Counted from the stretch's first letter, positions 6,893-27,310 are shown. The stretch: DNA of 27,310 nt from Verrucomicrobiota bacterium (GCA_038214755.1 JBBQRQ010000067.1:1-27310), one strand, 5' to 3'. The notes: a model not told the origin generated them from the letters alone. Numbers and translations: made by a program.

Positions 6893-7111
6893 ATGAAAAA
6901 GTTCACAGCTATTCTTCATCGCGGAGAGCCGGACGAGGGCGGCTATTGGGCCACGTGTCTGGAAGTGCCGGGAGCAAATGGCCAGGGAGAAACACGGAGC
7001 GCGTGTCTGAAAAATTTAACTGCCGCAGTGCGCGATTTGTTGGAATTAAACCGGGCGGAAGCGGTGGCCGGCGATCCGCAAGCCGAACAGATCGAACTGG
7101 CGGTGCCATGA
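6893..7111 (+). CDS. hicB: HicB-family antitoxin (short, no DNA-binding domain)
   Basis: GGYWATCLEVPGANGQGET motif, 72 aa. Confidence 0.9.
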   Translation: MKKFTAILHRGEPDEGGYWATCLEVPGANGQGETRSACLKNLTAAVRDLLELNRAEAVAGDPQAEQIELAVP

Positions 7112-7302
7112 AGCGTCGTGAATTGGAGCGGCACTTGCAGGCGCATGGCTGCCAGTTTTACCGCGAAGGTTCGGCACATTCCATTTGGGTGAATCCACAG
7201 ACCGGGCACAAAGAGTCAATTCCGAGACATCAAGAAATCAAACGCCACTTGGCGCGGAAGATTTGCCGTTGTCTTTCCGTTGAAGTTCCCAAAGGAGCGT
7301 GA
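7108..7302 (+). CDS. hicA: HicA-family toxin
   Basis: MKRRELERHL..HGC.FYREGSAHSIW.NP....IPRH.EI; ATGA overlap with hicB. Confidence 0.9.
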   Translation: MKRRELERHLQAHGCQFYREGSAHSIWVNPQTGHKESIPRHQEIKRHLARKICRCLSVEVPKGA

Positions 7303-7319
7303 GTCGTAGAGGGCGGCAT

Positions 7320-8309
7320 TCAGACTATCTCTTTTGCTTCCATTCCTTTTCTGTCCGGTTCGGAGAATTGGCCGTGCGCGCGAAATTTTTCGTAACGCAT
7401 TTTTAAACGTTCGCTCACGGTATGTTTTTGCAACGCCTCCAGGTCCCGAAGCAAATGCGTCTTCAATGTTTGAGCCGTGAGAGCGTGATCGTGATGCGCG
7501 CCGCCGAGTGGCTCGGGAATAATTTCGTCCACCAGTTTGAGTTCCAATAAATTTTTTGCGGTGATCTTCAAAGCTTCCGCCGCTTTGGCCGCGGCGGCGC
7601 GGTCTTTCCAAAGAATCGCCGCGCAACCTTCGGGGCTGATCACCGAGTAATAGGCATTTTCCAAAATCAAAACGCGGTCGGCGATCCCGATCCCGAGCGC
7701 GCCGCCAGAACCTCCTTCGCCGATGACCACCGCGATAATTGGCACTTCGAGCAACATCATTTCGCGCAAGTTCACGGCAATGGCCTCGGCGATATGTCGC
7801 TCTTCGGCGCCGATTCCGGGATACGCGCCAGCGGTGTCAATGAGAGTAATAATGGGCAAACCAAACTTGTCCGCCATTTGCATCAAACGCAGCGCCTTGC
7901 GATAGCCTTCGGGATAGGCGGAACCGAAATTGCGCAAAATATTTTCCTTGGTGTCGCGGCCTTTTTGCGTGCCGATGACCATGACCTTGTGGTCGCCGAG
8001 CCGCGCGAATCCGCCGACCACCGCGCGGTCATCGGCATAAAGTCGATCTCCATGCAGTTCCTGAAAGTCCTGAAAAGCGAGCGAGAGATAATCCAGAGTG
8101 AAAGGCCGTTTGGGATGGCGCGAAAGCTGGACGCGCTGCCAGGGGGTCAGATTGGAAAAAATTTCGCGCCGAATCTCTTCGAGTTTTTTCTCAATGGCTT
8201 GAGTTTCTTCAACGACATCGACGGAATTGGCTTCGGAATGTTTTTTTAATTCTTCGAGCTTTCTCTGCAATTCCATGACTGGCTTCTCGAAATCAAGCTG
8301 ATGTTTCAT
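7320..8309 (-). CDS. accA: Acetyl-CoA carboxylase carboxyltransferase alpha subunit
   Basis: MKHQLDFEKP start; RHPKRP, PEGYRKALR, DTAGAYPG, GEGGSGGALG and YSVISPEGCAAILW motifs. Confidence 0.97.
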   Translation of the reverse strand: MKHQLDFEKPVMELQRKLEELKKHSEANSVDVVEETQAIEKKLEEIRREIFSNLTPWQRVQLSRHPKRPFTLDYLSLAFQDFQELHGDRLYADDRAVVGGFARLGDHKVMVIGTQKGRDTKENILRNFGSAYPEGYRKALRLMQMADKFGLPIITLIDTAGAYPGIGAEERHIAEAIAVNLREMMLLEVPIIAVVIGEGGSGGALGIGIADRVLILENAYYSVISPEGCAAILWKDRAAAAKAAEALKITAKNLLELKLVDEIIPEPLGGAHHDHALTAQTLKTHLLRDLEALQKHTVSERLKMRYEKFRAHGQFSEPDRKGMEAKEIV

Positions 8310-8366
8310 GTCGGGAGAAAGTTTAGTTTCGCTCCGGCGGGCAGGCAAGAGTTGAAACCAATCTTA

Positions 8367-8541
8367 AATCTGAATTCCGAAATCCGAATTGCCGAAGCCC
8401 GAAAGAAGCTCGAAATCCGAAGACCGAACCCGTTTGGCCGCTGGGCCGAAAAAAGTTGTCCGAAGTGATGCCTGACTGGGAGGCATTCGGGCTTCGGGTA
8501 TTCGGATTTCTTTCGGCATTCGGATTTCGATCTTTGGTTTT
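8367..8541. repeat. Intergenic inverted degenerate heptamer arrays (CCGAAAT-like / ATTTCGG-like)
   Basis: Left arm ~8367-8428 (TCCGAAA TCCGAAT...CCGAAAGAAGCTCGAAATCCGAA); right arm ~8486-8541 (TTCGGGC TTCGGGT ATTCGGATTTCTTTCGGC ATTCGGATTTCGA). Confidence 0.8.
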
Positions 8542-8626
8542 CCGGTTAAACCCGGCACTCAACGACTGTGATTTTTCCATCTGAAAAAATAGTGTCGCGA
8601 CCTTGCGACTGTGGTTTCTTTGTTGC

Positions 8627-9424
8627 GTGAAAAAACATCCAGTGGTCATCAAAGAAAAAATCCGTCTCACCGATTTTCCGACAAACGACGACGGTGGGTT
8701 GGACAAGGAAAAAACCAAGGCGCAGATCGCAAAGATTGGCGAGCGTCTCGGCTACCTACAGCAACTTCTCTACGCCAACTCCAACCACGCGGTGCTGCTT
8801 CTTTTTCAAGGGGTGGACGCCAGTGGAAAGGACGGTGCCGTCCGCACTCTGCTCCAACACGTCAATCCCGCCGGAGTGGAAACGGCGAATTTCAAAGTTC
8901 CCTCCAGCGAGGAGCGCGCCCACGATTTTCTTTGGCGGATTCACAAGGCCATTCCGCGCTACGGCAACATTGGCGTCTTCAACCGTTCCCACTACGAAGC
9001 GGTGCTGGTGGAGCGCGTGCAAAAAATAGTTCCAAAAAAAATCTGGGCGCGACGTTATGAACAAATTGTGAATTTCGAAAAAATGCTCGTGGAAAATAAG
9101 GTCGTGCTCCTGAAATTTTATTTGCACATCAGCAAGGAGGAACAAGCCGAGCGGCTGAGAGAACGTCTGGCCAATCCCCGCAAGAATTGGAAATTTGAAA
9201 AAGGCGATCTCGATACTCGCCAGCATTGGGATGATTACATGAAAGCCTACCAAGACATGTTGAATGCGACCAGTCACGACGCCGCGCGCTGGCATTTGAT
9301 TCCGGCGGACCGCAATTGGTATCGCGATTTCCTCGTCGCCCGCACGGTCTGTGAAGTGATGGAGAACCTGAAAATGAAATGGCCCAAACCCAAAGAAGAT
9401 TTATCGAAGATCCGAATCGTTTGA
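8627..9424 (+). CDS. ppk2: Polyphosphate kinase 2 family protein (probably class III)
   Basis: FQGVDASGKDG Walker A, FKVPS.EE..HDFLWR, FNRSHYE and KFYLHISKEEQ motifs. Start uncertain (GTG 8627 chosen). Confidence 0.92.
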   Translation: MKKHPVVIKEKIRLTDFPTNDDGGLDKEKTKAQIAKIGERLGYLQQLLYANSNHAVLLLFQGVDASGKDGAVRTLLQHVNPAGVETANFKVPSSEERAHDFLWRIHKAIPRYGNIGVFNRSHYEAVLVERVQKIVPKKIWARRYEQIVNFEKMLVENKVVLLKFYLHISKEEQAERLRERLANPRKNWKFEKGDLDTRQHWDDYMKAYQDMLNATSHDAARWHLIPADRNWYRDFLVARTVCEVMENLKMKWPKPKEDLSKIRIV

Positions 9425-9519
9425 ACGCGGATCACACATTTAAATTCTGTTCGGCGCATCACTCTCATTAGCACGGCGGCTTCAGTTCTTTCATTACCAA
9501 CATCTCGGCGGGTGTTTCT

Positions 9520-9791
9520 TCAATCCTGAAAGAATTGGCATCACTCAGCCCAGCGTTGCGAGGAACGAGCTACGCTGGGAACGGCAAAGAAATGTTCATC
9601 AACTCGGAACGAGTTGGATCAAAATCAAAAAAACAATCGCAAATAGACGGTTCATCGAATGGGATTTCGGAGACGGCGGGGGAGGGTTTGATTCAACCTT
9701 TTCAAGGTTGGTGAATCGTTTGTAACGATGACCCAGCGTAGCTCGTGCCTCGCAACGCTGGGCTGATTGATTTCAATCCCGTTGGGATTGA
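9520..9791. repeat. Large REP/REPIN- or MITE-like inverted-repeat element
   Basis: 61-bp arms 9520-9580 and 9731-9791 match at 51/61 as reverse complements; inner hairpins at 9600-9616 and 9694-9710. Confidence 0.85.
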
Positions 9792-9902
9792 TAGTCGCCG
9801 ACGAATTGCGGGGCATGGCAAGGGTTTTAGCCCGGTGAGAAAATCGTATTAAAATATATTCAGCCGTTTTAACGGCTTCGGCCCGGTTGAAACGGAAAGG
9901 AG

Positions 9903-10556
9903 ATGAAAAGCGAAATGAATCTTTCCTCACCACCGGCGAAATTCTTCCCTGTGTCGCGCACTTTTTATGAACCCTCCGCCCGAGTTGTCGCGCCGCGTTT
10001 GCTCGGGCACTGGTTGATCCGGAAAACGGCGGATGGACCTTGCGGAGGAACTATCGTCGAGACGGAAGCTTACTTGATCAACGATCCCGCCTGCCACGCC
10101 GCAGTCGGGGAAACATCGCGCAATCGCGCCATGTTTGGAGTGCCAGGGCGGAGCTATGTTTATTTAATTTACGGCTATCATTTTTGTTTCAACGCGGTTT
10201 GTCGCCCCGAGAAAATTGCCGAAGCGGTCTTGATTCGCGCCCTCGAACCCGCGTTTGGAGAAAAATTTATGCGCGCGCAACGGCCCGTGGCCGAACCACG
10301 CAATCTTACCAATGGCCCCGCCAAACTTTGTTCCGCGATGAACATCACCCGCGCTCTGGATGGAGTCGATTTGTGCGACGCAGAATCTTCCTTGTTCATT
10401 GCAAAAAATCCGATGAGCCGGAGGTTTGTCGAGCAACGCGGGCCGATCATAGCAACGACGCGCATTGGCATTTCCAAAGCGGCGGATTTGCCTTTGCGAT
10501 TTTATCTGGAGGGAAGCCCATTCGTTTCGCGCCATGCTCCACGAATTAAATGTTAG
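9903..10556 (+). CDS. mpg: DNA-3-methyladenine glycosylase (MPG/AAG family)
   Basis: IVETEAY...DPACH, YVYLIYG.H.CFN, AVLIRALEP, GPAKLC and TRIGI motifs. Confidence 0.93.
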   Translation: MKSEMNLSSPPAKFFPVSRTFYEPSARVVAPRLLGHWLIRKTADGPCGGTIVETEAYLINDPACHAAVGETSRNRAMFGVPGRSYVYLIYGYHFCFNAVCRPEKIAEAVLIRALEPAFGEKFMRAQRPVAEPRNLTNGPAKLCSAMNITRALDGVDLCDAESSLFIAKNPMSRRFVEQRGPIIATTRIGISKAADLPLRFYLEGSPFVSRHAPRIKC

Positions 10557-11575
10557 TGCGGAACGCGGCTGTGTCGAAGGCCAGCCGCAGGATTTTCATC
10601 AGGCGGCTGGTCGAGGATGACACAGCCGCGCTCCGCAAAAGATTTGTCGGTAATCCATTTCGCCGTCCGCGTCATCAGCGGAATTGACATCAGGATGCTG
10701 ATATGGCCGTGTCGCAAACGCCAGATTTCCGGTTGGCCCCACGCCTGCCAAAATTCTTCGATGGCATCTTTGGCGGCAAACAAATCGTCCTCCGCTTCCT
10801 GAATCAAAATGCTTTCAGTTGCGATCAGCGGCCGATGCGAAACCAGATTCAGTTTCGCCAACGAGAGTCCGGAGTTCGCAAAGCTCTTGCGAATCGGCGC
10901 GCAAAAGACCAGTTCAGCGATGGCCCGTTCGAGTTTGGCCAGCGGTATGGTGAGGACGGCGAAATCGATTTGCGGTTCGTGACAAATAATCAATCCCCCG
11001 AGCCACGCTCCGAGCGACGTTCCCCACAAACCGATTCGACCGCAGCCCTGCCCGCTCAACCATTTTACCAAAGCGCGGGTGTCGGCGATGGATTGGCGTG
11101 TCGCTTCAACCATCCGAAACAAATCTTCAGAAATAAAATCCGTGACTGCGCCGGGGGCGCGCGGGCGGCGTTGCAAGTGATAAGGCAGTTCGAGGGCGAG
11201 GGCGTTCACCTTTTTTCGACGCAACAACGCCGCACAAAAAGGAAGCCGGAATCGATAACCCAATTCGTCGTTCCAACCGTGCAAGAGGATGACCGTGGGA
11301 AATTGTTGCCAGTTCTCCGCGCAACAAAATAATTTTCCCCGGACCAAATTATTATTCTCCCACGGTGTAGAAAGCGCCGAACGAAACTGAAACGCATTGC
11401 CACCAGTAAAAACCAAATCGGAGGGGCCTTTGACAAAGGCACAAAAAAAATCGTCGCCTTCCAGCAACGCCCCGGCCTCTTCCGCGTGCGGCTGATGCCG
11501 TGCGTTGCAAGACATGGCTGCCGCCGCCAGCCGAATAATCAGCCGGTCCAACGGGCGCGTGAACCACGGATGCAT
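10553..11575 (-). CDS. Alpha/beta hydrolase (ABHD18/DUF2048-like)
   Basis: ILLHGW, LPYH..RRP, GTSLG nucleophile, D.F and GH triad motifs. Start set at ATG 11575. The last ~28 aa are encoded by a palindrome. Confidence 0.8.
   Translation of the reverse strand: MHPWFTRPLDRLIIRLAAAAMSCNARHQPHAEEAGALLEGDDFFCAFVKGPSDLVFTGGNAFQFRSALSTPWENNNLVRGKLFCCAENWQQFPTVILLHGWNDELGYRFRLPFCAALLRRKKVNALALELPYHLQRRPRAPGAVTDFISEDLFRMVEATRQSIADTRALVKWLSGQGCGRIGLWGTSLGAWLGGLIICHEPQIDFAVLTIPLAKLERAIAELVFCAPIRKSFANSGLSLAKLNLVSHRPLIATESILIQEAEDDLFAAKDAIEEFWQAWGQPEIWRLRHGHISILMSIPLMTRTAKWITDKSFAERGCVILDQPPDENPAAGLRHSRVPH
10557..10637. repeat. REP-like palindrome (GGA.CGCGG...CCGCGCTCC type)
   Basis: TGCGGAACGCGGCTGTGTC (10557-10575) pairs with GACACAGCCGCGCTCCGCA (10619-10637); inner pair CCAGCCGC/GCGGCTGG. 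Confidence 0.85.
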
Positions 11576-17726: not shown

Positions 17727-20012
17727 TCAAATCTTTTTCACCGCAAAACGGATGACGACCTTTTCTTTTCGACCCGTTAAATCGACGGTTCCTCTTTCGT
17801 CCACCCTCAACGCTTTGCCCTCGACGGTCGCAGAAGTGATTTTCCAGCCGTCTGGCAAGCGCGCGCGAAATAAAATTTTCTCCGCGACGTTCCTTTCCGG
17901 CAGCGACAAGTTCGCGAAGATTTCACCCTTGCTCAATTTTGATTGAACATTCAGTGAGACTGGACCAAACGCCGTCGGCGCGCGTTCCACGTTGTAACCT
18001 TTTCCATCTTCGAGCCAACGTTTGGGCGTCCCGAAACCGAGCCGCAAAGTTTCGGGCTTGCCGTCGTTATTCAGATCCCAATCCTGCACGAACAGATGTC
18101 GCAACGTCCAAAGCCATTGCCCGTTGCTTGCCGTATTGGGCGGGCAATAAAAAAATCTGCCGCCGTCGTCGAGCGGTTCCAACGCCGTTCCTTCCGCGCC
18201 GATAAACGTGTTGCGCGTCATGCCGTGGGCCAGCATTCCATAGAAGCTCACGAGCGCGCGCTCCACTTCGTCGCGTCGCAGGCAATCGTTGATGTAACGC
18301 ATTCCGTAGAGTGGATTGGTGCGATGCTGTCCCGTCCAAAAAGTGTGGTTGGCCGCGCCGGAACGAGTGAGTCCCATGCAAAGCCCGCCGTGCGTCTCAA
18401 AATATTTTGGTATCCAGGTTTCCTTTTCGCTGCCGAGGAAAATGCCGGAACCGATGATATAATTCGCGACCAGATTCCAATAACTTCCAATGCGAGTTTC
18501 GGTGATCGGATCGTGAATCTCCTCTGCGCCAAACAGCGCCATCGGAACAAACGGTGGTTCGGTTTCGCGACGAATACTTTTGTCGGCGGCATCGAGAATG
18601 TCTCGTTTGTATTTCGCGGCGACCTCCGAAACACGCTTGGCTGTTTCGGAATCACCCATTTCCTCCAGCACCGGAATCAAGTCGCGCAACGCGGCCCAGC
18701 AACTCGCATTTGCTCCGAGCGAATAAACCGGCTGTTCGATGTCGGTGCAGTAATTGTCTTTGGGCAGCAGGCCGTTTTCGCCGTTGCGATTGTTCAAAAT
18801 CCAGTCGAGCTCCTTCTGCCAGCGAGAACGCAACGCTTTAACGAATTCCACATCGCGGGTCTGCCAAAAAAATTTGCAAAGCGTGTCGAGTTTGTGCGCC
18901 GCAAAATGGTTGGTCAGGCGACGATCCACGAGATCAAGAATCACGGGCAGAAAACGGCGCATGTCGTTTTCATAACCGAACCCCATCAACGGCACGGCGG
19001 CGTCGCTCGTCTCAGCCGCATACATTTTTTGATACTGATTTCCCGCGCTGTAAAAAAGATTGCTCCCGCTGCAGATCGAAAAATTCTGAATGATTAAATT
19101 TTTGAAGGCATGGTTGACGAGCGGCTCCGGCGTTTCGACCTTCGTTCCCTCGGACAAAAGTTTTGTCCAGGCCTCCGTGCAAAGTTTGCGCTGCTCGTCA
19201 TAACTCTCTTTTGAAAAATGAAAAGCGCTGTTAGTCGCGAGCGGTTTCGCGGCGATGGCCAGCGTCGCAAATTTGTTTCCGCTGATTTTTGCGTGCATCG
19301 TTTTGCGATCCAAATCCCATGTTTTTTCAAACCACGCCAGCGTTTCGTTTTTTTCATTCACGGCGACGCCTCCGACATATTTCACCGCTGATTTCGAATC
19401 CATCTCGACGGTGACAAATCCGTTTGAGCCTGCGACGAGAGAAAATCTCGCGAACACGACTCCGCTTTCGGAGAGACTTGGGTCAGTGCTGGCAAACGCT
19501 TCCAACCGATAGATTTCCGGACTGGGATCATGGGAAGGATTTTGGGAAGCGGCGGGGCAGTTGTCGTGACGCGGCGTGGGATGTTCGTAATCAATTTGGA
19601 CAATCGGCAAAAAACCTTCCGCAAGTTTTGGATGTTGAAGTCGGCTTAAAATATCGCCGAAGCGAAATTCGTCCGGGCCGACTCGAAAAATAACGGGCAC
19701 GCCGACATCGTTCCAACTTCGAGTTCCGCCGCGAAGATTGACGCCGCTGCCATTGGAAACGAGCCGCGCTTTGATCTTCGCATTCGGCGCGCTCAAGACG
19801 ATGGGATAGAAACGAAAATCCGCGTTGACGTAGCGCGGCGGCGGCAAAAGGTTGTCAAAAAACTCGTAACTCGCGCCGTTGGGCTGGCCTATGGCGGCTT
19901 CGCCCCAAAGATCGCGTTTGGATTTCAGGACTTCATCGAACGAAGGAATTTGAGACTGGGCTGCAATCGAAAAAGCCGCGAAGAAAAAACTAAACAGTTT
20001 CCACGCCTTCAT
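17727..20012 (-). CDS. Exported hypothetical protein, probable (alpha/alpha)6 glycoside-hydrolase-like; paralog A
   Basis: Signal peptide MKAWKLFSFFFAAFSIAAQ; helical core with NGLLPKDNYCTDI; C-terminal LRLGFGTPKRWL..G....VERAPTAFGPVS, a type of tail seen after six-hairpin glycosidase barrels. Confidence 0.65.
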   Translation of the reverse strand: MKAWKLFSFFFAAFSIAAQSQIPSFDEVLKSKRDLWGEAAIGQPNGASYEFFDNLLPPPRYVNADFRFYPIVLSAPNAKIKARLVSNGSGVNLRGGTRSWNDVGVPVIFRVGPDEFRFGDILSRLQHPKLAEGFLPIVQIDYEHPTPRHDNCPAASQNPSHDPSPEIYRLEAFASTDPSLSESGVVFARFSLVAGSNGFVTVEMDSKSAVKYVGGVAVNEKNETLAWFEKTWDLDRKTMHAKISGNKFATLAIAAKPLATNSAFHFSKESYDEQRKLCTEAWTKLLSEGTKVETPEPLVNHAFKNLIIQNFSICSGSNLFYSAGNQYQKMYAAETSDAAVPLMGFGYENDMRRFLPVILDLVDRRLTNHFAAHKLDTLCKFFWQTRDVEFVKALRSRWQKELDWILNNRNGENGLLPKDNYCTDIEQPVYSLGANASCWAALRDLIPVLEEMGDSETAKRVSEVAAKYKRDILDAADKSIRRETEPPFVPMALFGAEEIHDPITETRIGSYWNLVANYIIGSGIFLGSEKETWIPKYFETHGGLCMGLTRSGAANHTFWTGQHRTNPLYGMRYINDCLRRDEVERALVSFYGMLAHGMTRNTFIGAEGTALEPLDDGGRFFYCPPNTASNGQWLWTLRHLFVQDWDLNNDGKPETLRLGFGTPKRWLEDGKGYNVERAPTAFGPVSLNVQSKLSKGEIFANLSLPERNVAEKILFRARLPDGWKITSATVEGKALRVDERGTVDLTGRKEKVVIRFAVKKI

Positions 20013-20095
20013 TGTTTTTCCACGGCGAAATGCATGGTTTGCGTTCCGTTTAAAGATGAACAAAGACGTAACACCACATCGGCGGAAGGAAAACA

Positions 20096-20392
20096 TTAAA
20101 CGGTCTTCTGAGGCGGCGCCCGTCTGCGAGTAAGCGCTTTTTTGATACCAGCTGTACGTTGCGGGTCTGGCGGCTTCAAATCGTCAAGCAAGCGATTGGG
20201 ACTGACTTCCAAAAACTGTGAGAGGCGAGCAAAGGTGGTGACAGCAAATGGAAAATCGCCGCGCTCAAGAGCGCCGATGGTTTGCACATGGACACCTGCC
20301 AATTCAGCCAAACACTCTTGCGTGAGACTCGCTTTAAGACGAGCCGCACGGATATTTCGCCCGATCACCCGCAGAATCTGCCGGTCGTTCAC
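20096..20392 (-). CDS. XRE-family HTH transcriptional regulator
   Basis: IGRNIRAARLKASLTQECLAELAGVHVQTIGALERG. Confidence 0.9.
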   Translation of the reverse strand: MNDRQILRVIGRNIRAARLKASLTQECLAELAGVHVQTIGALERGDFPFAVTTFARLSQFLEVSPNRLLDDLKPPDPQRTAGIKKALTRRRAPPQKTV

Positions 20393-20422
20393 TGGGTTCA
20401 GTGAAGCGAGGGATTTGCGTTG

Positions 20423-20453
20423 TTGACACCGGATAACGGCTAGACTAGAAAAT
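20423..20453 (+). promoter_or_regulatory. Candidate sigma70 promoter for the cassette operon
   Basis: Perfect TTGACA at 20423-20428, then 17 bp to TAGAAA(AT); lies in the divergent XRE/operon spacer. Confidence 0.35.
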
Positions 20454-20625
20454 GGGGCGCTTCGCTCCTGCGCTAATTTGTCAGCACAGGATTATGCGTT
20501 TGTAGTGCTCAATAAAATTCTGGAAAAACTTATGAAAATTAAAAACGTGAGAAATTTTCTTGTATTGATGGTTTTGGCGCAGTCGGGAATTTTCAATATC
20601 GCGGCACAGGATCCTCTATTTACGA

Positions 20626-21956
20626 GGTTCCCCGCTGTTTTCGGTGGAATAGAAGTTGGGGCTGGATAGTTTGTGGGGATGACACCGGAAAAACTATTTC
20701 AAGAGTTATTGGGATTGGGGCTGAGTTGGGAAGTAATCGAGAGCCGTTTCGAGCGCACGAGCGGGACGGTCTTTTTGGAGATCGGCGAGACGTCGCGGTT
20801 GTGGGAGTCGGCCCGTTGTCCCAAAGAGGGGGGCTTGGTCTTTTGCTACGACCACACCGAAGTAATCACCTGGCGACATCTCAATGTTTTCCAACACCCC
20901 TGCCAGATCACGTGCCGGCTGCCACGGGGAAAGTGTCGCCAGTGCGGGCAGGTCTTCCGCGTGCGTCCGCCGTGGGAAGGTTTAAGCACGCATTTCACCA
21001 AGGAGTAAGCCTTTGCCCTGCTGCTCATGCGCGAGATGCCCATGAGCAAAGTAGCCGAGATGGTTGGCGAGACGGACACGCGCTTGTGGCGCATGCTCTT
21101 TCGCCAGGTGGAGGCAGCCTATGCCCAGGCGGATTTCAGCCAGGTCTGTTGCGTGGGCGTCGATGAGATGAGTGTGCGCAAGGGCCATGAATATATCAGC
21201 GTGTTCGCCGATTTAGTGGCCAAGCGCGTGCTTTTTGCCACCGAAGGCAAGGACAAGGAAACGTGGATGAAATTCGTGGAGGCACTGGAAAAACACCATG
21301 GCCATCGGCATGCCATCACCCAGGCCAGCATGGACATGAGCCGGGCCTATCAGAGTGGAGTGGCGGAGAACTGTCGTAACGCCCAAGTGGTATTCGACAA
21401 GTTTCATGTCATTAAGAATGCCAACGAAGCGGTGGACAAGGTGCGGCGGGCGGAAGTCCGGCTGGGCGGTCCAGGGGTGTGGGAAGCGCTGAACAAAAGC
21501 CAATGGCTCTGGCGTAAAAACCCGGAGAACCTGACGGACAAGGAACAAGAGCGAATGGCCAGGATCAAGCACAAAAACCTCTGCACGGCCAAGGCGTATC
21601 AAATGCGCCTGGTGCTCCAGGATATCTATCGGTCGGCGGATGCGGCGACGGCGCGGCATCGTTTCAAAGTGTGGTGTCGGTGGGTGCGTTGGGTGGCTCG
21701 TTTCCACAAGGCCAGCCTCTTTACCTCGATGGTGAAGCTGGCGCAAATGGTCGCCAACCATCTGGCGGGAATCCTGGCGCATTGGAAGTGGGGAGTGACC
21801 AACGCCTTCATGGAAGGATTAAACAGCGTCTTTAGCGGGACCAAACGCAAAGCGCGCGGCTACCGTTCGACCACGCACCTGATCACCATGCTCTACCTCG
21901 TCGCCGGAAAACTTCGCCTCCCACAATTCTAATTCCACTGAAAACAGCGAAGAACC
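20626..21956 (+). mobile_element. ISL3-family insertion sequence, 1331 bp
   Basis: IRs GGTTCCCCGCTGTTTTCGGTGGAAT (20626-20650) and ATTCCACTGAAAACAGCGAAGAACC (21932-21956) match at 22/25; 8-bp target duplication ATTTACGA at 20618-20625 and 21957-21964. Confidence 0.96.
20679..21932 (+). pseudogene. ISL3 transposase with in-frame internal stop
   Basis: zf-ISL3 (WRHL...RLPRGKC), GVDE, SMDM, FDKFHV and TNAFMEGLN...KRKARGYR motifs. TAA at 21006-21008 splits two same-frame ORFs. Confidence 0.92.
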
Positions 21957-23924
21957 ATTTACGAATGTCCGCGCGGTTGAGGATGAAGGTATACAATTGT
22001 TTTGGCAGAGCAAATCCAACACCACCTATCGGATCGAACACGCGACCGAATTGATCGAAGGCAACACGTCATGGAGCGTTCTATACGATAATTATCCCTC
22101 GCATGGAACAAACACCTTCTGGATGGACACGGGGAATTACGATCAAATTCCGTGGATTCTTACTCCCAAAAAAGAATTGATGCGTTTCTATCGGGTCGTC
22201 GCCAAGGGAACGAATTCGGGCGCGGCTCCTTATGCATCGATTCTTTCACCAACTAACAATGCCGTCCTATCAGGCGAAATTATCATATCTGTCGTGGCGA
22301 CCAGTAGCTACCCTGTGTTGAACACGACGCTGTTTGTTGACGGCCAGGAAATGGAGAGCAGCGACGACGGGACAAATTACGTGATTAATACCTGCGAATG
22401 GCCGAACGGCCCACACATACTTTTTGTTACGGCAATGGCGGAGTCAGGTTTGTCGGGGCAAACAGGAGTCAATTCAACCGACATCGGACGCGCAGTTTCA
22501 TCGTACGTCAGCGTTGATTTTGACAATCTGATTCACAAAGTAGATTTCAGTGAACCATTTTTTGAGCCCTCCTTGGGACAAACCCAACGAGTCACGGCTG
22601 TGTTCGCAGCGAATGTGAACTGGACGCTGCAAGTTCTTGATGAATCCAGCAACGCTGTCCGCACAGTAACCGGCAGTGGCACGTCACTCAGTTTTAATTG
22701 GGACGGAACGGGAGATGGCGGAACAAATATACCAGATGGTGTTTACATGTATTTAATCTCTGTGGAAACGAATGGCCTCGCCTCTGGGTCTGAAGGTGGT
22801 TCCAGTGGCGGTGGTGGAAGCCCGCCTTCTCCCAATTCATTTTTAAACTCCAGTTCCGAGCCAGAGTTTTACGAAATCCCCTTGCCTCCTTTACCACTTG
22901 GTCTGTCGTACGGTACTGACGAAGAAGGAAAGGAAATTACTGGTATGATCGTCCCACGCCCGGCACGCTCTCATACAAGCGCGAGCGTAGGCTTCTCCGA
23001 ATCGGTCGAAAAAGGCGGCCCTTCCCCTGCAGCTTATAGCGGTGGATCGCAAAGCACCCTCGCGCCAACCAAGCCACCTACGAAGCGGGTTAAGAATTTA
23101 GTGGGAACAGTGGGCGTTGCTTACTACGACTGGAGCACTCCTCGCACTCTTGCGGTTCCGAAAAATGGATTACCCCTCTCGGGCAACAGCGGAAAAGTCC
23201 AAATTCAGGGTTCCTACGGCGACAGATTTCTGCCAGATCTCCCCGGGACCGATGTGCTCGTCAAAAGGTTTGCAAAGAAAATGGCAAATGCTGGGTACAA
23301 GTTGAGCTTCAACAAATCGGGAACAAATCTTATGGCAGTAGAACTGAAAAATTCATCGCTTGGTGGAAGCAATCTTTTTGCAAATGTAAACATTGGCTAT
23401 TTTTCCGACCATGGTGAATTCGGCACGACCATAGACTGGCATAATTGGGCCGGCCAATCTCTTCAAACGTATTTTCCCAGCGATAATCCATCGGATTCAT
23501 CCGCTCCATGGATTGGTTTCTCTGAATTTGGCTTCAGCGGAGGCAGCTTGCGCTGGATAGCTTTTGACACTTGTTTCAGTGTGCATCACGACCAGTATTC
23601 GAGCATGCTCAATAAGGGCGTTCTGCCCATAGGTGCTGACAATCATCTTTTTTGCGGAGCGACAACGGTTACCTACGACGTTCGGAATTTGGGCGAGCTT
23701 TGGGCAAAAAAAATGATTGGCGGATTTTTTACTTCGCCGGAAACAGTATCCCAAGCCTGGTTCGATGCTGGAATCGACGCCTACAGAAAGTACTCCGGCC
23801 TTAGCAATATGGTTTTCCGCGTGGTTGGTTGGGAAGACTGTTTCGATGACAAACTAAAGGATTTCGTGAGTAGTCCCAGTGGAAGCCTTACTTATCGTCA
23901 GCGAATAGTATATCCTCCGCCGCC

Positions 23925-24908
23925 ATGAAAACGGAGGCGATTGTCTTGGCGGCTTTTATAAGTTGCATCTCTGGCCTCGCAGAGACTTCCCCACGACAAG
24001 AGATGATGATTGGCACGAATCGGATTGAATTAATCTGGAACGCTCCGCTGTCGAACCACTATCCATCGATGTTATGGGTTTACAGGATTGTCCCGCAAAG
24101 TTTTTCTCCGGCTGTAATATCCAACCTGATGGCACTCGGATCATTCACGATGGCTGACCGCACGCATGTAGAAGGACAACCGTCATTTAAAGATAAACAG
24201 ATGATGTATTTCACAGATGAGAACAAGAGGAAGGAGCTTGGAGTTTTTCCTTCCATCGGTTGGATATACTATAATGATCGCGATGCTGAACCAAAGAAGA
24301 ACGAAGTGTCCACCGTCCCCAATGACGAAAAAGCGTATGAACTAGCTCTCGAGTTTTTACGGAAGTTCGGCGTTGACCGCTCGCAACTTGTGACCAAGCC
24401 GGGAAGCACCGAATTAAAAATCATGCGTGACGTGGAGATTCGCGGCTATTTCAATGATGAAAAGAAAAAGGAGATTGAGGATGTCGTCAATCGTGGTGTG
24501 TTTTTCATTCGCCGAGTGGACGGCATTGATTTCGATGGAATCGGCAGCCGGGGCGGCGTCTATTTTAACTTCGGGAAGGATTGCAGATTAGCGCGGTTGA
24601 AGATTGTCTGGAAAGGTATTGAACCGTTTCAACTTCATAAAACCCTGACGCCACAAGAGATTATGGCTGGCATTGTAGTCGGAAAAACACAGTGGGAAAA
24701 CGGACCGATGGCGTGGCAATCGGCGAAAACAATTACGATTACAAGCTGTGTGCCTTATTACCGCGGCCTGCTTGGCGACGATAAGGAACATAAATTCATA
24801 GAGCCTTACGCAGAACTATCCGCATTAGTGGATGATGGCGTTAGAAAGATAGTTTTGAAGGTTGAATGTCCGACTCTCGGCGAGTTACTCGAAATGGAAA
24901 ACGAATAA
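23925..24908 (+). CDS. Exported hypothetical protein, cassette partner 1
   Basis: 327-aa ORF with signal peptide; ATGA overlap with the upstream stop; paralog of the next gene. Confidence 0.85.
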   Translation: MKTEAIVLAAFISCISGLAETSPRQEMMIGTNRIELIWNAPLSNHYPSMLWVYRIVPQSFSPAVISNLMALGSFTMADRTHVEGQPSFKDKQMMYFTDENKRKELGVFPSIGWIYYNDRDAEPKKNEVSTVPNDEKAYELALEFLRKFGVDRSQLVTKPGSTELKIMRDVEIRGYFNDEKKKEIEDVVNRGVFFIRRVDGIDFDGIGSRGGVYFNFGKDCRLARLKIVWKGIEPFQLHKTLTPQEIMAGIVVGKTQWENGPMAWQSAKTITITSCVPYYRGLLGDDKEHKFIEPYAELSALVDDGVRKIVLKVECPTLGELLEMENE

Positions 24909-24939
24909 TGGTAAACTCTATTCATCTTAGAAAGGAGCC

Positions 24940-25908
24940 ATGAAGAAAATGTTGCCACTTCTGGTGACAGTCTTCGGGTTGCCCTTTCTATTAGTAGGCA
25001 GCGATCTGAAATTGGAAGATATTTCCCTGCATCTTTCAACCAATGCCTCAATTGTTTGGAAGGCCGCAACCAACGATCTTCCAAAAAGCTATGGCGTTTT
25101 TACAAGAGCACCGAGGTTTTTTTCGCCGAACGTGATTTCAAACGCCATTCTTCTCGCGTCGTTTCCTTTGCCGCGTGCCATCTTTGCTTCCACGAATATC
25201 CTCCGATTACAGGACGGAGAGAAAGATCGCTGGTCGCGCGCTTTAAACGTTCTGCCGGAATCGGGACAGATTGACTATGAAATACGATTTGATTCCGGAA
25301 ATCCCTCAGGCGTTCCCGCCGCCGAGGAAGTTTCAAAGCGCGCGTGGAATTATGCGGCTCGTTTTGAGATAGGTGCGTCTGAATTACTCGAGAAACCGGA
25401 GAGCCGACGGACGAATAGATGCGACCACAAAAACACAAATCAAATTTGCTCTCGTCGTACATTCCTGACGCGAAAGGTTGACGGGATTGAGATGAGGGAT
25501 TTTGGGTTTGGAATTACCATCGGCGGCGAGGGACAAATCAAAAGATTTGAATTACTCTGGCCGGAATTGAAGCTGCGCGAAACTCATGTCGCGGCAAGTC
25601 TGGAGGAAATAATCAGACTCATCCGGGCAAATAAAGCCGCTGTGCTTCCGAATGAAAATGAGCCTGATTATTTTGCGAGAGTAAAAACGTTGGCCAAAAC
25701 AAAAAAGCTCACCCTGACCAAAATCACTCCGTTTTATGCCGAAGGCCGGTATGGTGAGCCGCCGGAAAAACAGCTATCCAAACTCATTTCGCCGATGGTG
25801 GAGCTAGAAGGGCGTGCCGAACTTGATGACACGATTGTTGATGTTCGACTTCTCTCGCCCATTCTGACAACCGATATCGCCAGATTTTTGAAGCAAGAAA
25901 AGGACTAA
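24940..25908 (+). CDS. Exported hypothetical protein, cassette partner 2
   Basis: 322-aa ORF, AAGGAG RBS, signal peptide; motifs collinear with partner 1. Confidence 0.85.
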   Translation: MKKMLPLLVTVFGLPFLLVGSDLKLEDISLHLSTNASIVWKAATNDLPKSYGVFTRAPRFFSPNVISNAILLASFPLPRAIFASTNILRLQDGEKDRWSRALNVLPESGQIDYEIRFDSGNPSGVPAAEEVSKRAWNYAARFEIGASELLEKPESRRTNRCDHKNTNQICSRRTFLTRKVDGIEMRDFGFGITIGGEGQIKRFELLWPELKLRETHVAASLEEIIRLIRANKAAVLPNENEPDYFARVKTLAKTKKLTLTKITPFYAEGRYGEPPEKQLSKLISPMVELEGRAELDDTIVDVRLLSPILTTDIARFLKQEKD

Positions 25909-26015
25909 CATTTTGTGCTCGATTGGGCGCAAAGTTCCGCCGAGCCCCGTGAGGAAATCGAACATCGCCATGTGGTCTTGATTTCACCGGAACACATCGC
26001 CAGCCAGTAGAGTCG

Positions 26016-27310
26016 CTACTCTTTTTTAACCGCAAAACGCAGTGCCACTGTTGCTTTTTCTCCCGTGAGATCAATCGTGCCTCGATCATCAGCGTTGATC
26101 TTTTTTCCGTTGGCTTTTGCCGAAACAATCTTCCACCCGTCCGGCACACGCGCGCGAAATAAAATTTTCTCCGGGGCGTTTCGCTCCGGCAATTGAATAT
26201 CCGCGATGACTTCGCCTTGGCTCAACTTGGACTGAACATTGAAAGAGACGGGGCCAAACGCCGTCGGCGCGCGTTCGACTTTAAAACTTTTTCCATCCTC
26301 CAACCAACGCTTCGGAGTGGCAAACGCGAGCCGCAACGTTTCTGGTTTGCCGTCATCGTTCAGATCGGAATCCTGGACAAAGACGTAACGCAGCATCGAA
26401 AGAAAATGCGAATTAGCCGCGCTGTTCGGTGGACAATAAAAAAGCCGTCCGCCTTCATCGAGCGGTTTGAGCGAGCAACCTTCTGCGCCGACAAACGTGT
26501 TGCGCGTGAGACCTTGCGCGAGCATTCCATAGAGGCAAACCAGCGCGCGTTCCGGCTCGTCGCGACGCAAAACATCCTGCGCGTAACGTGTGCCGTAAAG
26601 CGGATTGATTTTGTATTCGCTGTTCCAAAAAGTGTTTTCCTGTCCGCCCGCGCGCAGCATTCCCATCGCGAGTCCGCCGTGTTGTTCCTGATAATGCGGA
26701 AGCCAATTTTCCTCCGCGCTGCCCACGGGAAAAATTCCGCTCGCAATCGTGTAGCCGATAATGATGTTCCAATAACTGCCGATGCGCGTGTCGCAAATCG
26801 GCGTGTGCGCGAGTTCGTTGGTGTAGAGCGCGATGGGAACAAACGGCGGCGTGGTGGAACGGTCGGCGCTTTTTTCAATTGCGGTTAAAACGGTTTTGCG
26901 AAATTCGCGCGCTACTTTTTCGTAATGTTCGGCTTCAGTTTTCTCGCCGACTTCACCGAGCACCGTCGCCATGTCGCGCAACGCCCGCCACGCTTTTGAA
27001 TTCGCGTTGAGCGTTTGCACCGGCGTGCTGATGTCGCCGCAATATTGTTCCTTGGGAAATAAACCGTGTTCGCCCGTGCGATGTTCGTCGAGGCGGCGCG
27101 CTTCACTTTCCCAACCGGAAACAACTTCTTTGGGGCCGGTGCGATAACGTTCCGGCTTCGACCAATTGCGAAATTCCTTGATGATGGAGGCATCGCGTGT
27201 TTGCCAATAGTAACGGCAAACGTCGTTCAATTTAAAACCGGCCTGGTGATATTCGAGACCTTTGCGCGTGAAATCAAACAGCGGAACCATCCAGCGCTTC
27301 ATGTCCTTTT
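26016..27310 (-). CDS. 3' part of glycoside-hydrolase-like paralog B (starts beyond the window)
   Basis: Collinear with 17727..20012: GL.PK..YC.DI, TRIGSYWN, NPLYG.RY, YGMLA.G.TRNTF.GAEG, YCPPN and VERAPTAFGPVS. The frame stays open to the window edge. Confidence 0.8.
   Translation of the reverse strand, partial: KDMKRWMVPLFDFTRKGLEYHQAGFKLNDVCRYYWQTRDASIIKEFRNWSKPERYRTGPKEVVSGWESEARRLDEHRTGEHGLFPKEQYCGDISTPVQTLNANSKAWRALRDMATVLGEVGEKTEAEHYEKVAREFRKTVLTAIEKSADRSTTPPFVPIALYTNELAHTPICDTRIGSYWNIIIGYTIASGIFPVGSAEENWLPHYQEQHGGLAMGMLRAGGQENTFWNSEYKINPLYGTRYAQDVLRRDEPERALVCLYGMLAQGLTRNTFVGAEGCSLKPLDEGGRLFYCPPNSAANSHFLSMLRYVFVQDSDLNDDGKPETLRLAFATPKRWLEDGKSFKVERAPTAFGPVSFNVQSKLSQGEVIADIQLPERNAPEKILFRARVPDGWKIVSAKANGKKINADDRGTIDLTGEKATVALRFAVKKE

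Follow-up and report, generated by a model that had tools for sequence, protein, structure and literature searches.

The window analysed here is a 27,310-nt stretch of DNA from a Verrucomicrobiota bacterium (GCA_038214755.1 JBBQRQ010000067.1:1-27310), corresponding to contig C67 of a 5.1-Mb genome that is 97% complete. According to the source names and the record titles of homologs, the relatives of this genome are Verrucomicrobiota/Limisphaerales metagenome-assembled genomes (MAGs). Between positions 20,096 and 25,908 the window carries a compact gene cassette: a regulator gene on the minus strand and, divergent from it on the plus strand, gene 1, which encodes a protein with a predicted caspase-like domain, followed by two partner genes, gene 2 and gene 3. 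The regulator (20096..20392) is a 98-aa XRE-family helix-turn-helix (HTH) protein with a GTG start (Pfam HTH_3, E 1.6e-10), and a divergent spacer of 139 nt (20393..20531), read from the sequence, separates it from gene 1. Gene 1 is present in two pieces, a 5' fragment (20532..20625) of 31 codons plus the first base of codon 32, and a 3' part (21965..23928) comprising codons 32-685, with an ISL3-family insertion sequence (IS) of 1,331 bp (20626..21956, plus strand) between them. Gene 2 (23925..24908) encodes a partner of 327 aa, which we call type A, and gene 3 (24940..25908) encodes a type-B partner of 322 aa. The two partners are paralogs, sharing 26% identity over 305 columns by BLASTP (E 2e-18).

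The genes of the cassette are tightly packed. The ATG of gene 2 overlaps the stop codon of gene 1 in an ATGA arrangement (CCATGAAA at 23923-23930), and gene 3 starts 31 nt past gene 2, behind an AAGGAG box. Judged by this spacing, genes 1 to 3 probably form one operon. The guanine-plus-cytosine (GC) fraction was 0.494 for gene 1, 0.464 for gene 2 and 0.478 for gene 3, all lower than in the flanks (0.524 for bases 1-20095 and 0.536 for 25909-27310), and the IS element had a value of 0.571.

We examined the interruption of gene 1. The frame begins at ATG 20532 and is broken after codon 31 by the element, whose ends form 36-nt imperfect terminal inverted repeats (20626-20661 and 21921-21956, 78% complementary) and which is bordered by a perfect 8-bp direct target duplication, ATTTACGA, at 20618-20625 and 21957-21964. 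Its transposase matched DDE_Tnp_ISL3 in Pfam (E 1.8e-62) and also contains a Zn_ribbon_ISL3 domain. ISL3 elements make 8-bp target duplications, and the transposase, the inverted repeats and the duplication together place the element in this family. When the element and one copy of the duplicate were removed, the frame 20532-20625 ran into 21965-23928 and gave 685 codons (31+1+653), and an alignment showed that the residues at the junction fit the homologs' '...AQ-LQFT-DV...EGIQLYW' without loss. With a perfect duplication, and with the remainder of gene 1 open and full-length, the insertion gives the impression of a recent event. The element lies just behind the signal peptide and separates it from the rest of gene 1, and an exportable protease is therefore probably not produced here; partner genes 2 and 3 are intact despite the split.

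The transposase frame (20673-21932) is itself broken by one in-frame TAA (21006-21008) into open reading frames (ORFs) of 111 aa and 301 aa, and the element may no longer be mobile by its own transposase. The assembly holds one full copy of it and a 180-nt end fragment on contig C58. Among the sequencing runs listed as containing the stretch there was one DNA run, a sediment metagenome that is the probable source sample, and no RNA run. Contigs of this run, which is not independent of the assembly, span both IS junctions, and no IS-free joint was found among these contigs, which hide rare alleles. In the same contigs, one loose end at the right end of the element continues into other flanking DNA, a hint that the element has a further copy elsewhere.

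We then considered the protein encoded by gene 1. Its N-terminus (MKIKNVRNFLVLMVLAQSGIFNIAAQDPLFT) is signal-peptide-like when read by eye and aligns with the N-termini of homologs. The 3' part is open from end to end, and 100% of its length is matched by homologs. It encodes, in order, an N-terminal beta-sandwich, a Big_7 domain (~22228-22416), a further beta domain, an FlgD_ig domain (~22618-22767), a Ser/Gly/Pro-rich linker (~22790-23090) and a C-terminal alpha/beta domain (23101..23925). Within the 653-aa part, residues 424-605 of the C-terminal domain matched the Pfam family DUF6345 (PF19872) with 54.1 bits (cut-off 26.9; E 1.9e-14), and a whole-genome Pfam search returned the same match. 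An earlier note on this DNA, made from the sequence alone, had described the divergent XRE gene, a gene 1 of 685 aa once the IS is removed, with a signal peptide, several beta-rich domains, a Ser/Gly/Pro linker and a C-terminal alpha/beta domain, two paralogous partner genes of which one is coupled to gene 1 by an ATGA overlap, and a block more AT-rich than its surroundings. Each of these points was recovered here, the last as 0.46-0.49 GC in the cassette genes against 0.52-0.54 in the flanks.

A word-indexed search retrieved 324 relatives of gene 1 at E<=0.001. The best 120 of these 324 were mostly ~690 aa long with ~100% query coverage and 38-68% identity, and nearly all of them combined DUF6345 with immunoglobulin (Ig)-like domains; an intact ortholog from the same genus was 66% identical. 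In an alignment of 35 homologs, H482, C536 and H560 were invariant. Across 105 sequences (29-71% identity), the cysteine was invariant and the His-Gly pair was kept in at least 90%. A conserved APTRPPTxPVKN stretch is also present. In the window, the dyad codons lie at 23410-23412 (His, in SDHG) and 23572-23574 (Cys, in FDTC), the latter motif reading FDTC in the window protein versus LACN in the family consensus.

The last 354 residues of gene 1 were modelled with AlphaFold2 on the homolog alignment. Over residues 80-354, the block values of the predicted local distance difference test score (pLDDT) were 95-98. In this model the histidine follows strand 177-181 and the cysteine follows strand 231-235, that is, after the predicted third and fourth core strands, which is the order and placement seen in caspases. 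An independent VIA comparison of the model with representatives of the solved structures returned 35 chains at Z>=8, and those listed were all clan-CD folds. The top match was SAVED-CHAT (8tl0, Z 15.1, root-mean-square deviation 2.9, 182 aligned residues), followed by metacaspase-4 (13.2), caspases 3/8/9 (11.8-12.6), legumain (11.6), the gingipain RgpB (11.3) and clostripain (10.3); Kgp and separase were listed too. Foldseek against the PDB gave 20 matches at E<=0.001, with 8tl0 at 8e-5, and then MALT1, caspase-6/7 and RgpB (8e-5 to 1e-3).

The predicted model thus has the caspase-type alpha/beta/alpha sandwich that defines clan CD in MEROPS, and the sequence has its motif, a His-Gly and then a Cys, each just behind a hydrophobic core strand. 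At the level of sequence, the known clan-CD families (C14, C11, C13, C25 and CHAT) gave no Pfam match at E<=0.1, the only matches being DUF6345 and Ig-type domains. A profile search of PDB sequences with the caspase-like domain returned only FlgD-type Ig matches at E<=10, and NCBIfam gave nothing for gene 1 past weak Ig-type matches. Since the fold matches clan CD, yet the known families of the clan are unmatched by sequence, the DUF6345 tail is read as a predicted separate family within the clan. We hold with good confidence that the head of gene 1 is a clan-CD-type enzyme, in which His183 and Cys237 of the domain would carry out catalysis. The clan-CD assignment proposed in the earlier note is supported by a predicted caspase fold and a conserved His/Cys dyad.

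For the partners, sequence searches gave few leads. Neither gene 2 nor gene 3 matched a Pfam or NCBIfam family at E<=0.1, and gene 2 had no match below E 0.18 among PDB sequences. An exhaustive search with gene 2 found a family of 396 cluster representatives at E<=0.001, the best 150 of which were mostly ~320 aa long and stood alone. In the ESM Atlas, gene 2 matched only unnamed Verrucomicrobial clusters; the nearest named family was DUF6034, whose score of 0.86 makes it a lead only. Both partners begin with stretches that look hydrophobic or signal-peptide-like by eye, consistent with proteins that are exported or membrane-anchored.

The AlphaFold2 model of gene 2 (pLDDT 91.7, predicted template modelling score 0.85) starts with a helix (residues 2-16), either a signal peptide or an anchor by its position, and continues with three alpha/beta modules. 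Foldseek matched this model to 5coz (EUBREC_2869; 6e-9) and YycI (5e-6), with a probability of 0.99-1.00 for YycI, YycH and YpeB. VIA returned the same short list, with 5coz at Z 12.9, YycI at 9.6, YycH at 8.9 and the C-terminal part of YpeB (YpeB-C, 5boi) at 8.0. Weaker matches were obtained to the propeptides of fungalysin (4k90_B, Z 6.8) and vibriolysin (3nqz_A, Z 5.4), with Foldseek values of 2e-2 and 4e-2. The predicted model thus belongs with the FTP-PepSY and YycI/YycH/YpeB kinds of fold. The propeptides of secreted M4/M36 proteases fold and inhibit the enzymes that they precede, and YpeB stabilises the enzyme encoded beside it. The fold of gene 2 is accordingly predicted to be that of extracytoplasmic regulator or pro-piece modules, with which the 'inhibitors or maturation chaperones' suggested earlier for the partners are compatible.

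We next asked how regularly the genes occur together, in 49 loci with relatives of gene 1, taken from one genome per species and nearly all from Verrucomicrobiota MAGs. In 40 of the 49 loci the next gene downstream, on the same strand, was a partner as recognised by the partner profile, and 8 of the other 9 end at a contig edge. Of the 41 loci whose sequence continues downstream, 40 thus have a partner. It was present as a single copy in 30 loci, as two copies in 9 and as three copies in 1. When the junctions between protease and partner or between two partners were inspected, 28 of 50 were ATGA/GTGA overlaps and 47 of 50 had gaps of at most 13 nt. The earlier note had proposed a survey of homolog neighbourhoods for a conserved order of effector and partner with variable partner copy number, and these counts provide it, with mostly coupled genes; they support the view of the downstream paralogs as dedicated partners. 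No other gene family recurred beside the pair among the loci surveyed; the 83 neighbouring ORFs had housekeeping functions, apart from a few loci with genes for integrase, Rep, Toprim or restriction proteins.

The same association was seen at the level of whole genomes. Among 151 genomes of the order, 10 had DUF6345 and 13 had the partner family, and in all 8 genomes with both the two were adjacent. As for genomes in which only the partner was detected, one (G019) has a gene-1 ortholog missed by the Pfam model, in another (G118) the contig ends just beyond the partner, and in two (G105 and G129) the partner is represented only by short fragments, 53 and 89 aa long. In a further one (G154), an intact partner (L076:5417-6843, on contig C105 of that genome) stands behind a 140-aa C-terminal remnant of a gene-1 homolog; this is another lineage with a decayed protease gene and a kept partner.

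To place the two partners of the window, we used a quick maximum-likelihood tree of 50 partner proteins, restricted to those covering at least 250 positions of the profile. The partner-family (A3) profile matches gene 3 at 6.7e-64. Gene 3 falls in a clade of 12 rows with a Shimodaira-Hasegawa-like approximate likelihood ratio (SH-aLRT) support of 99, and 9 of these rows are second-position genes; one more (L054) is also second in fact, its first copy having been split and dropped. In the same quick tree, gene 2 pairs with its same-genus ortholog inside a first-position group. Since gene 3 belongs to the second-position clade and gene 2 groups with first-position genes, we read their tandem arrangement as an old A+B pair that recurs at other loci, not as a recent duplication.

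The cassette is patchily distributed. Full-length matches were found in 4 of 41 related genomes (G000, G005, G013 and G019), and within the genus of the window the cassette was present in 2 of 9 genomes (G000 and G005). The genes flanking the cassette in the window were unmatched in 18 kb around the copy in G005, so that the two same-genus copies lie in different contexts. The flanking 789-aa gene occurs as a single copy with 47-56% identity in each of 4 same-genus genomes, one of which (G001) also has a weak partial second match. With this gene as a guide, an empty insertion site was sought in these 4 genomes and none could be defined, as the gene lies there in other contexts. The genes on either side of the cassette (17727-20096 and 26016-27302, both on the minus strand) are themselves mutual paralogs (55% identity, 428 aa), and the cassette therefore sits between tandem paralogs. 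A third copy is found on contig C158, and beyond a weak match to the glutaminase-A six-hairpin domain these proteins have no Pfam family.

Two related loci were observed in the same genome. A second, divergent cassette on contig C8 (L024:7067-10653) comprises an XRE gene (10231-10653, plus strand), a 791-aa protein with Big_7 and DUF6345 (8052-10427, minus strand) and a partner split by a frameshift into 7582-8055 and 7067-7690. Unless this frameshift is an assembly error, both cassettes of the genome appear to carry a disrupted gene. On contig C14 (56130-58681; L018:1360-3243), a 628-aa paralog has a signal peptide and the whole Ig-like stalk of gene 1 (hhalign probability 98.5% over residues 21-285, 25% identity). 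Its C-terminal domain differs from DUF6345 and contains a hydrophobic strand followed by SHG and another followed by LDGC, and its end is overlapped by a 238-aa ORF with a lipoprotein-like N-terminus. This locus may represent another caspase-like head with another partner.

We also investigated how the cassette might be regulated. Of the 46 loci with sufficient upstream sequence, 14 had an XRE-type gene no more than 1.5 kb away on that side, as identified with an iterated local profile; Pfam confirms 8 of them. As noted above, the C8 cassette has one as well. A conserved leader of ~115 nt was found upstream of gene-1 homologs in 24 loci (including L056:6762-6875), and a single locus has both the leader and an XRE gene. 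The leader appears to be structured, with a GC-rich hairpin of the type CCAAGGCGCGCCC-loop-GGGCGCCGCCTTGG that has compensatory changes; RNAalifold predicted 16 pairs, 7 of them with double changes. The leader of L056 had nothing credible in Rfam, and an Rfam scan of the window returned no family at the gathering score. The window has the XRE version, without the leader. The earlier note had called the system XRE-regulated; this is only partly supported, given the share of loci with an XRE gene and the many others that carry the leader instead. XRE control is a reasonable reading for the subtype of cassette present in the window, and not a general one.

Within the window, a perfect 7-nt inverted repeat, TTCACTG-GGTT-CAGTGAA (20388-20405), extends across the GTG start codon of the XRE gene and may be either an operator or a hairpin that arose by chance. 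A promoter scan found no sigma-70-like site between the XRE gene and gene 1, and the site counts in the promoter and terminator scan did not exceed the shuffled expectation. The leader was also observed before other genes (in L034 and L069) and before four signal-peptide ORFs in the genome of the window, at C68:23301-23412 on the plus strand and at C10:52102-52004, C4:85261-85153 and C3:98530-98429 on the minus strand, as located by the leader search. The leader may represent a cis-regulatory RNA, so far undescribed, that serves genes for secreted proteins in this lineage.

We compared the cassette with known systems. The clan-CD peptidases (CHAT, represented by SAVED-CHAT 8tl0 and DdvA 8rot, and families C14, C13 and C11) have the same predicted fold, with Z values of 10-15, and the His-Gly...Cys dyad behind consecutive core strands is also present in the tail of gene 1. 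Gene 1 differs from these families in having no sequence match to them, in its probable export, in a domain that ends an Ig-like stalk, and in the separate partner gene. A parallel in organization is the gingipain RgpB (4ief), matched by VIA and Foldseek as given above, which is likewise a secreted clan-CD protease with an Ig-like domain and a dedicated latency pro-piece. In gingipains, pro-piece and enzyme form one chain, which leaves the cell by the type IX system with a C-terminal signal. In the cassette, in contrast to this cis arrangement, the candidate keeper has a gene to itself and another predicted fold, and gene 1 had no type IX signal above the Pfam cut-off (CHU_C, 17 bits against 27).

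The partners have parallels of their own. Modules of the gene 2 model align with the FTP-PepSY propeptides of M4/M36 metalloproteases at the modest scores already given (Z 6.8 and 5.4). These propeptides act in cis on metalloproteases, whereas gene 2 is a separate three-domain protein beside a gene of cysteine-protease type. In Bacillus spores, the SleB-YpeB pair shows the same order as here, an enzyme gene followed by a partner with PepSY-type repeats, and SleB and YpeB each need the other for stability. SleB, however, is a cell-wall lytic enzyme of Firmicutes, and no sequence relation exists. YycH and YycI, which act with the WalK kinase, and EUBREC_2869 are the best structural matches of gene 2 and share its extracytoplasmic, multi-domain alpha/beta build and a hydrophobic segment at the N-terminus; the target of YycH and YycI is a membrane kinase, but no kinase recurs beside the cassette, and 5coz is a structure of no known function.

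Taken as a whole, we read the locus as a conserved Verrucomicrobial cassette that encodes an exported clan-CD protease and its trans-encoded, propeptide-like keepers and that has been inactivated here by the IS element, a reading that we consider somewhat better than even. By fold analogy and gene linkage a keeper role for the partners appears likely, and as to whether they actually serve as folding helpers or inhibitors we regard the case as evenly balanced. In the mechanism proposed, gene 1 would be exported by Sec, with its Ig-like stalk carrying the clan-CD protease head. The type-A partner would be made in step with gene 1 through coupled translation, be exported in turn and bind the head as a trans-acting pro-piece, serving as a folding aid, a means of latency or both, and the type-B partner would add to this control or vary it. 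Release or removal of the partner would leave the enzyme active outside the cytoplasm. In this subtype of the cassette, the XRE protein would repress the divergent promoter.

Several observations weigh against this interpretation. Gene 1 is broken in the window, so that the function of the locus here is doubtful. A shared fold does not show function, as clan CD includes inactive members (c-FLIP and Raptor are among the matches) and also transpeptidases (GPI8 and legumain-type ligases). The partner has no PepSY or FTP profile match by sequence in Pfam, its best structural match (5coz) is itself uncharacterised, and YycI and YycH are regulators of a kinase, not protease inhibitors. The linkage has exceptions as well: one locus with a fragmented gene 1 (L073) has downstream DNA and no partner, and in another genome (G092) a canonical DUF6345 protein of 1,357 aa with CARDB domains stands without an A3-family partner beside it. 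In the latter, a 394-aa ORF behind the DUF6345 protein was considered as a partner and rejected, having no profile similarity and an hhalign probability of 2.2%.

Of the alternatives considered, two keep gene 1 as an active enzyme. In one, gene 1 would be an active exported clan-CD protease and the partners would be adaptors, anchors, activators, substrate presenters or signalling regulators in the manner of YycH/YycI. This is suggested by the closest characterised matches of gene 2, YycI and YycH, which regulate a kinase, by the hydrophobic N-terminus of each partner, possibly an uncleaved anchor (helix 2-16 in gene 2), and by the two old subtypes A and B, which suggest distinct roles. The propeptides of M4/M36 proteases and YpeB are in the same match lists, however, the tight translational coupling fits a stoichiometric complex formed at birth, and no kinase or sigma-factor gene recurs beside the loci; we consider this alternative rather unlikely. 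In the other, the DUF6345 domain would be a sortase-like transpeptidase or ligase, comparable to GPI8, PorU or legumain-type ligases, acting on cell-surface proteins with the partner as a cofactor. Glycosylphosphatidylinositol (GPI) transamidase (Z 10.6) and the ligase OaAEP1 (Z 11.8) are indeed among the VIA matches, and a long Ig-like stalk would suit a surface enzyme. The scores of these two do not exceed those of the hydrolases, neither a conserved substrate gene nor a family with sorting signals accompanies the loci, and the patchy distribution (10 of 151 genomes of the order) speaks against a core sorting machine; we consider this reading improbable.

Two further alternatives depart more from an exported enzyme with keepers. 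Gene 1 could be a non-catalytic surface protein, an adhesin or a binding module on a caspase scaffold, in which case the pair would be structural. Pseudo-enzymes of this fold exist (c-FLIP, Z 9.3; Raptor, Z 8.1), and the window protein departs from the LACN consensus with its FDTC; an invariant cysteine and a near-invariant His-Gly across the 105 sequences are nevertheless hard to explain without catalysis, and we judge this quite improbable. The earlier note had recognised in the locus the layout of polymorphic toxins and immunity proteins, in which a trafficking trunk with an exchangeable toxic head and cognate immunity genes is used against competitors. The C-terminal head with partner genes behind it in 1 to 3 copies has this appearance, the patchy cassette is at times found beside integrase, Rep or restriction genes, and the C14 paralog shares the trunk while bearing another head with an HG...C pattern. 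Against this, the best 120 of 324 homologs are full-length and nearly all have the DUF6345 head, with no swapped heads among them, and the partners are large (~320 aa), three-domain and exported, not small cytoplasmic immunity proteins. The partner copies are old subtypes, which sets them apart from arrays of orphan immunity genes. Genes for delivery do not recur either, with no markers of type 5, 6 or 7 secretion (T5/T6/T7), contact-dependent inhibition (CDI) or Rhs among the 83 neighbouring ORFs. That part of the earlier description was not supported, and we regard it as very improbable. As regards anti-phage defence, PADLOC returned no family for genes 1-3 at E<=0.01, and the XRE gene matched only generic control-protein HTH models.

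We return to the exported protease with trans-encoded keepers. Extended to the family, DUF6345 would represent a new exported clan-CD family whose pro-piece is encoded in separate genes, with a type-A partner that is always co-made and a type-B partner as an optional second control, in a mobile cassette switched by an XRE protein or by a structured leader RNA that other secreted-protein genes of these bacteria share; should relatives occur in other phyla, control of this split-zymogen kind would be widespread. We offer this generalization tentatively, as falling somewhat short of an even chance.

In the literature, as far as the text of the source was available, the name DUF6345 was met only as a list entry for a vesicle protein of Tannerella forsythia. 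No description of a DUF6345 protease paired with a partner was found, and searches for DUF6034, EUBREC_2869, PF19872 and PF19499 returned nothing. The titles and abstract openings of the top-ranked results on PepSY together with caspase-like cysteine proteases and inhibitors held nothing relevant. The earlier note did not recognise the locus as a named system; the family of the gene 1 tail does have a Pfam name, DUF6345, to which no function is attached. New here, for the Verrucomicrobial branch, are the partner types A and B, the coupling statistics and the alternative of an XRE gene or a leader.

Clan-CD proteases, among them caspases, metacaspases, gingipains, legumains and separase, play key roles in cell death, virulence and the maturation of proteins, and to our knowledge each known family of the clan has its own latency mechanism. 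In this genome, the locus appears to be a recently inactivated copy, a natural knockout and not a working system. If the exported family has hundreds of members in Verrucomicrobia and relatives in other phyla, and if its latency is provided by a separate, co-translated protein of propeptide-like build, it would add both a new clan-CD enzyme family and a new principle of control. Functions would thereby also be assigned to DUF6345, a Pfam domain that so far has none, and to a partner family without any profile.

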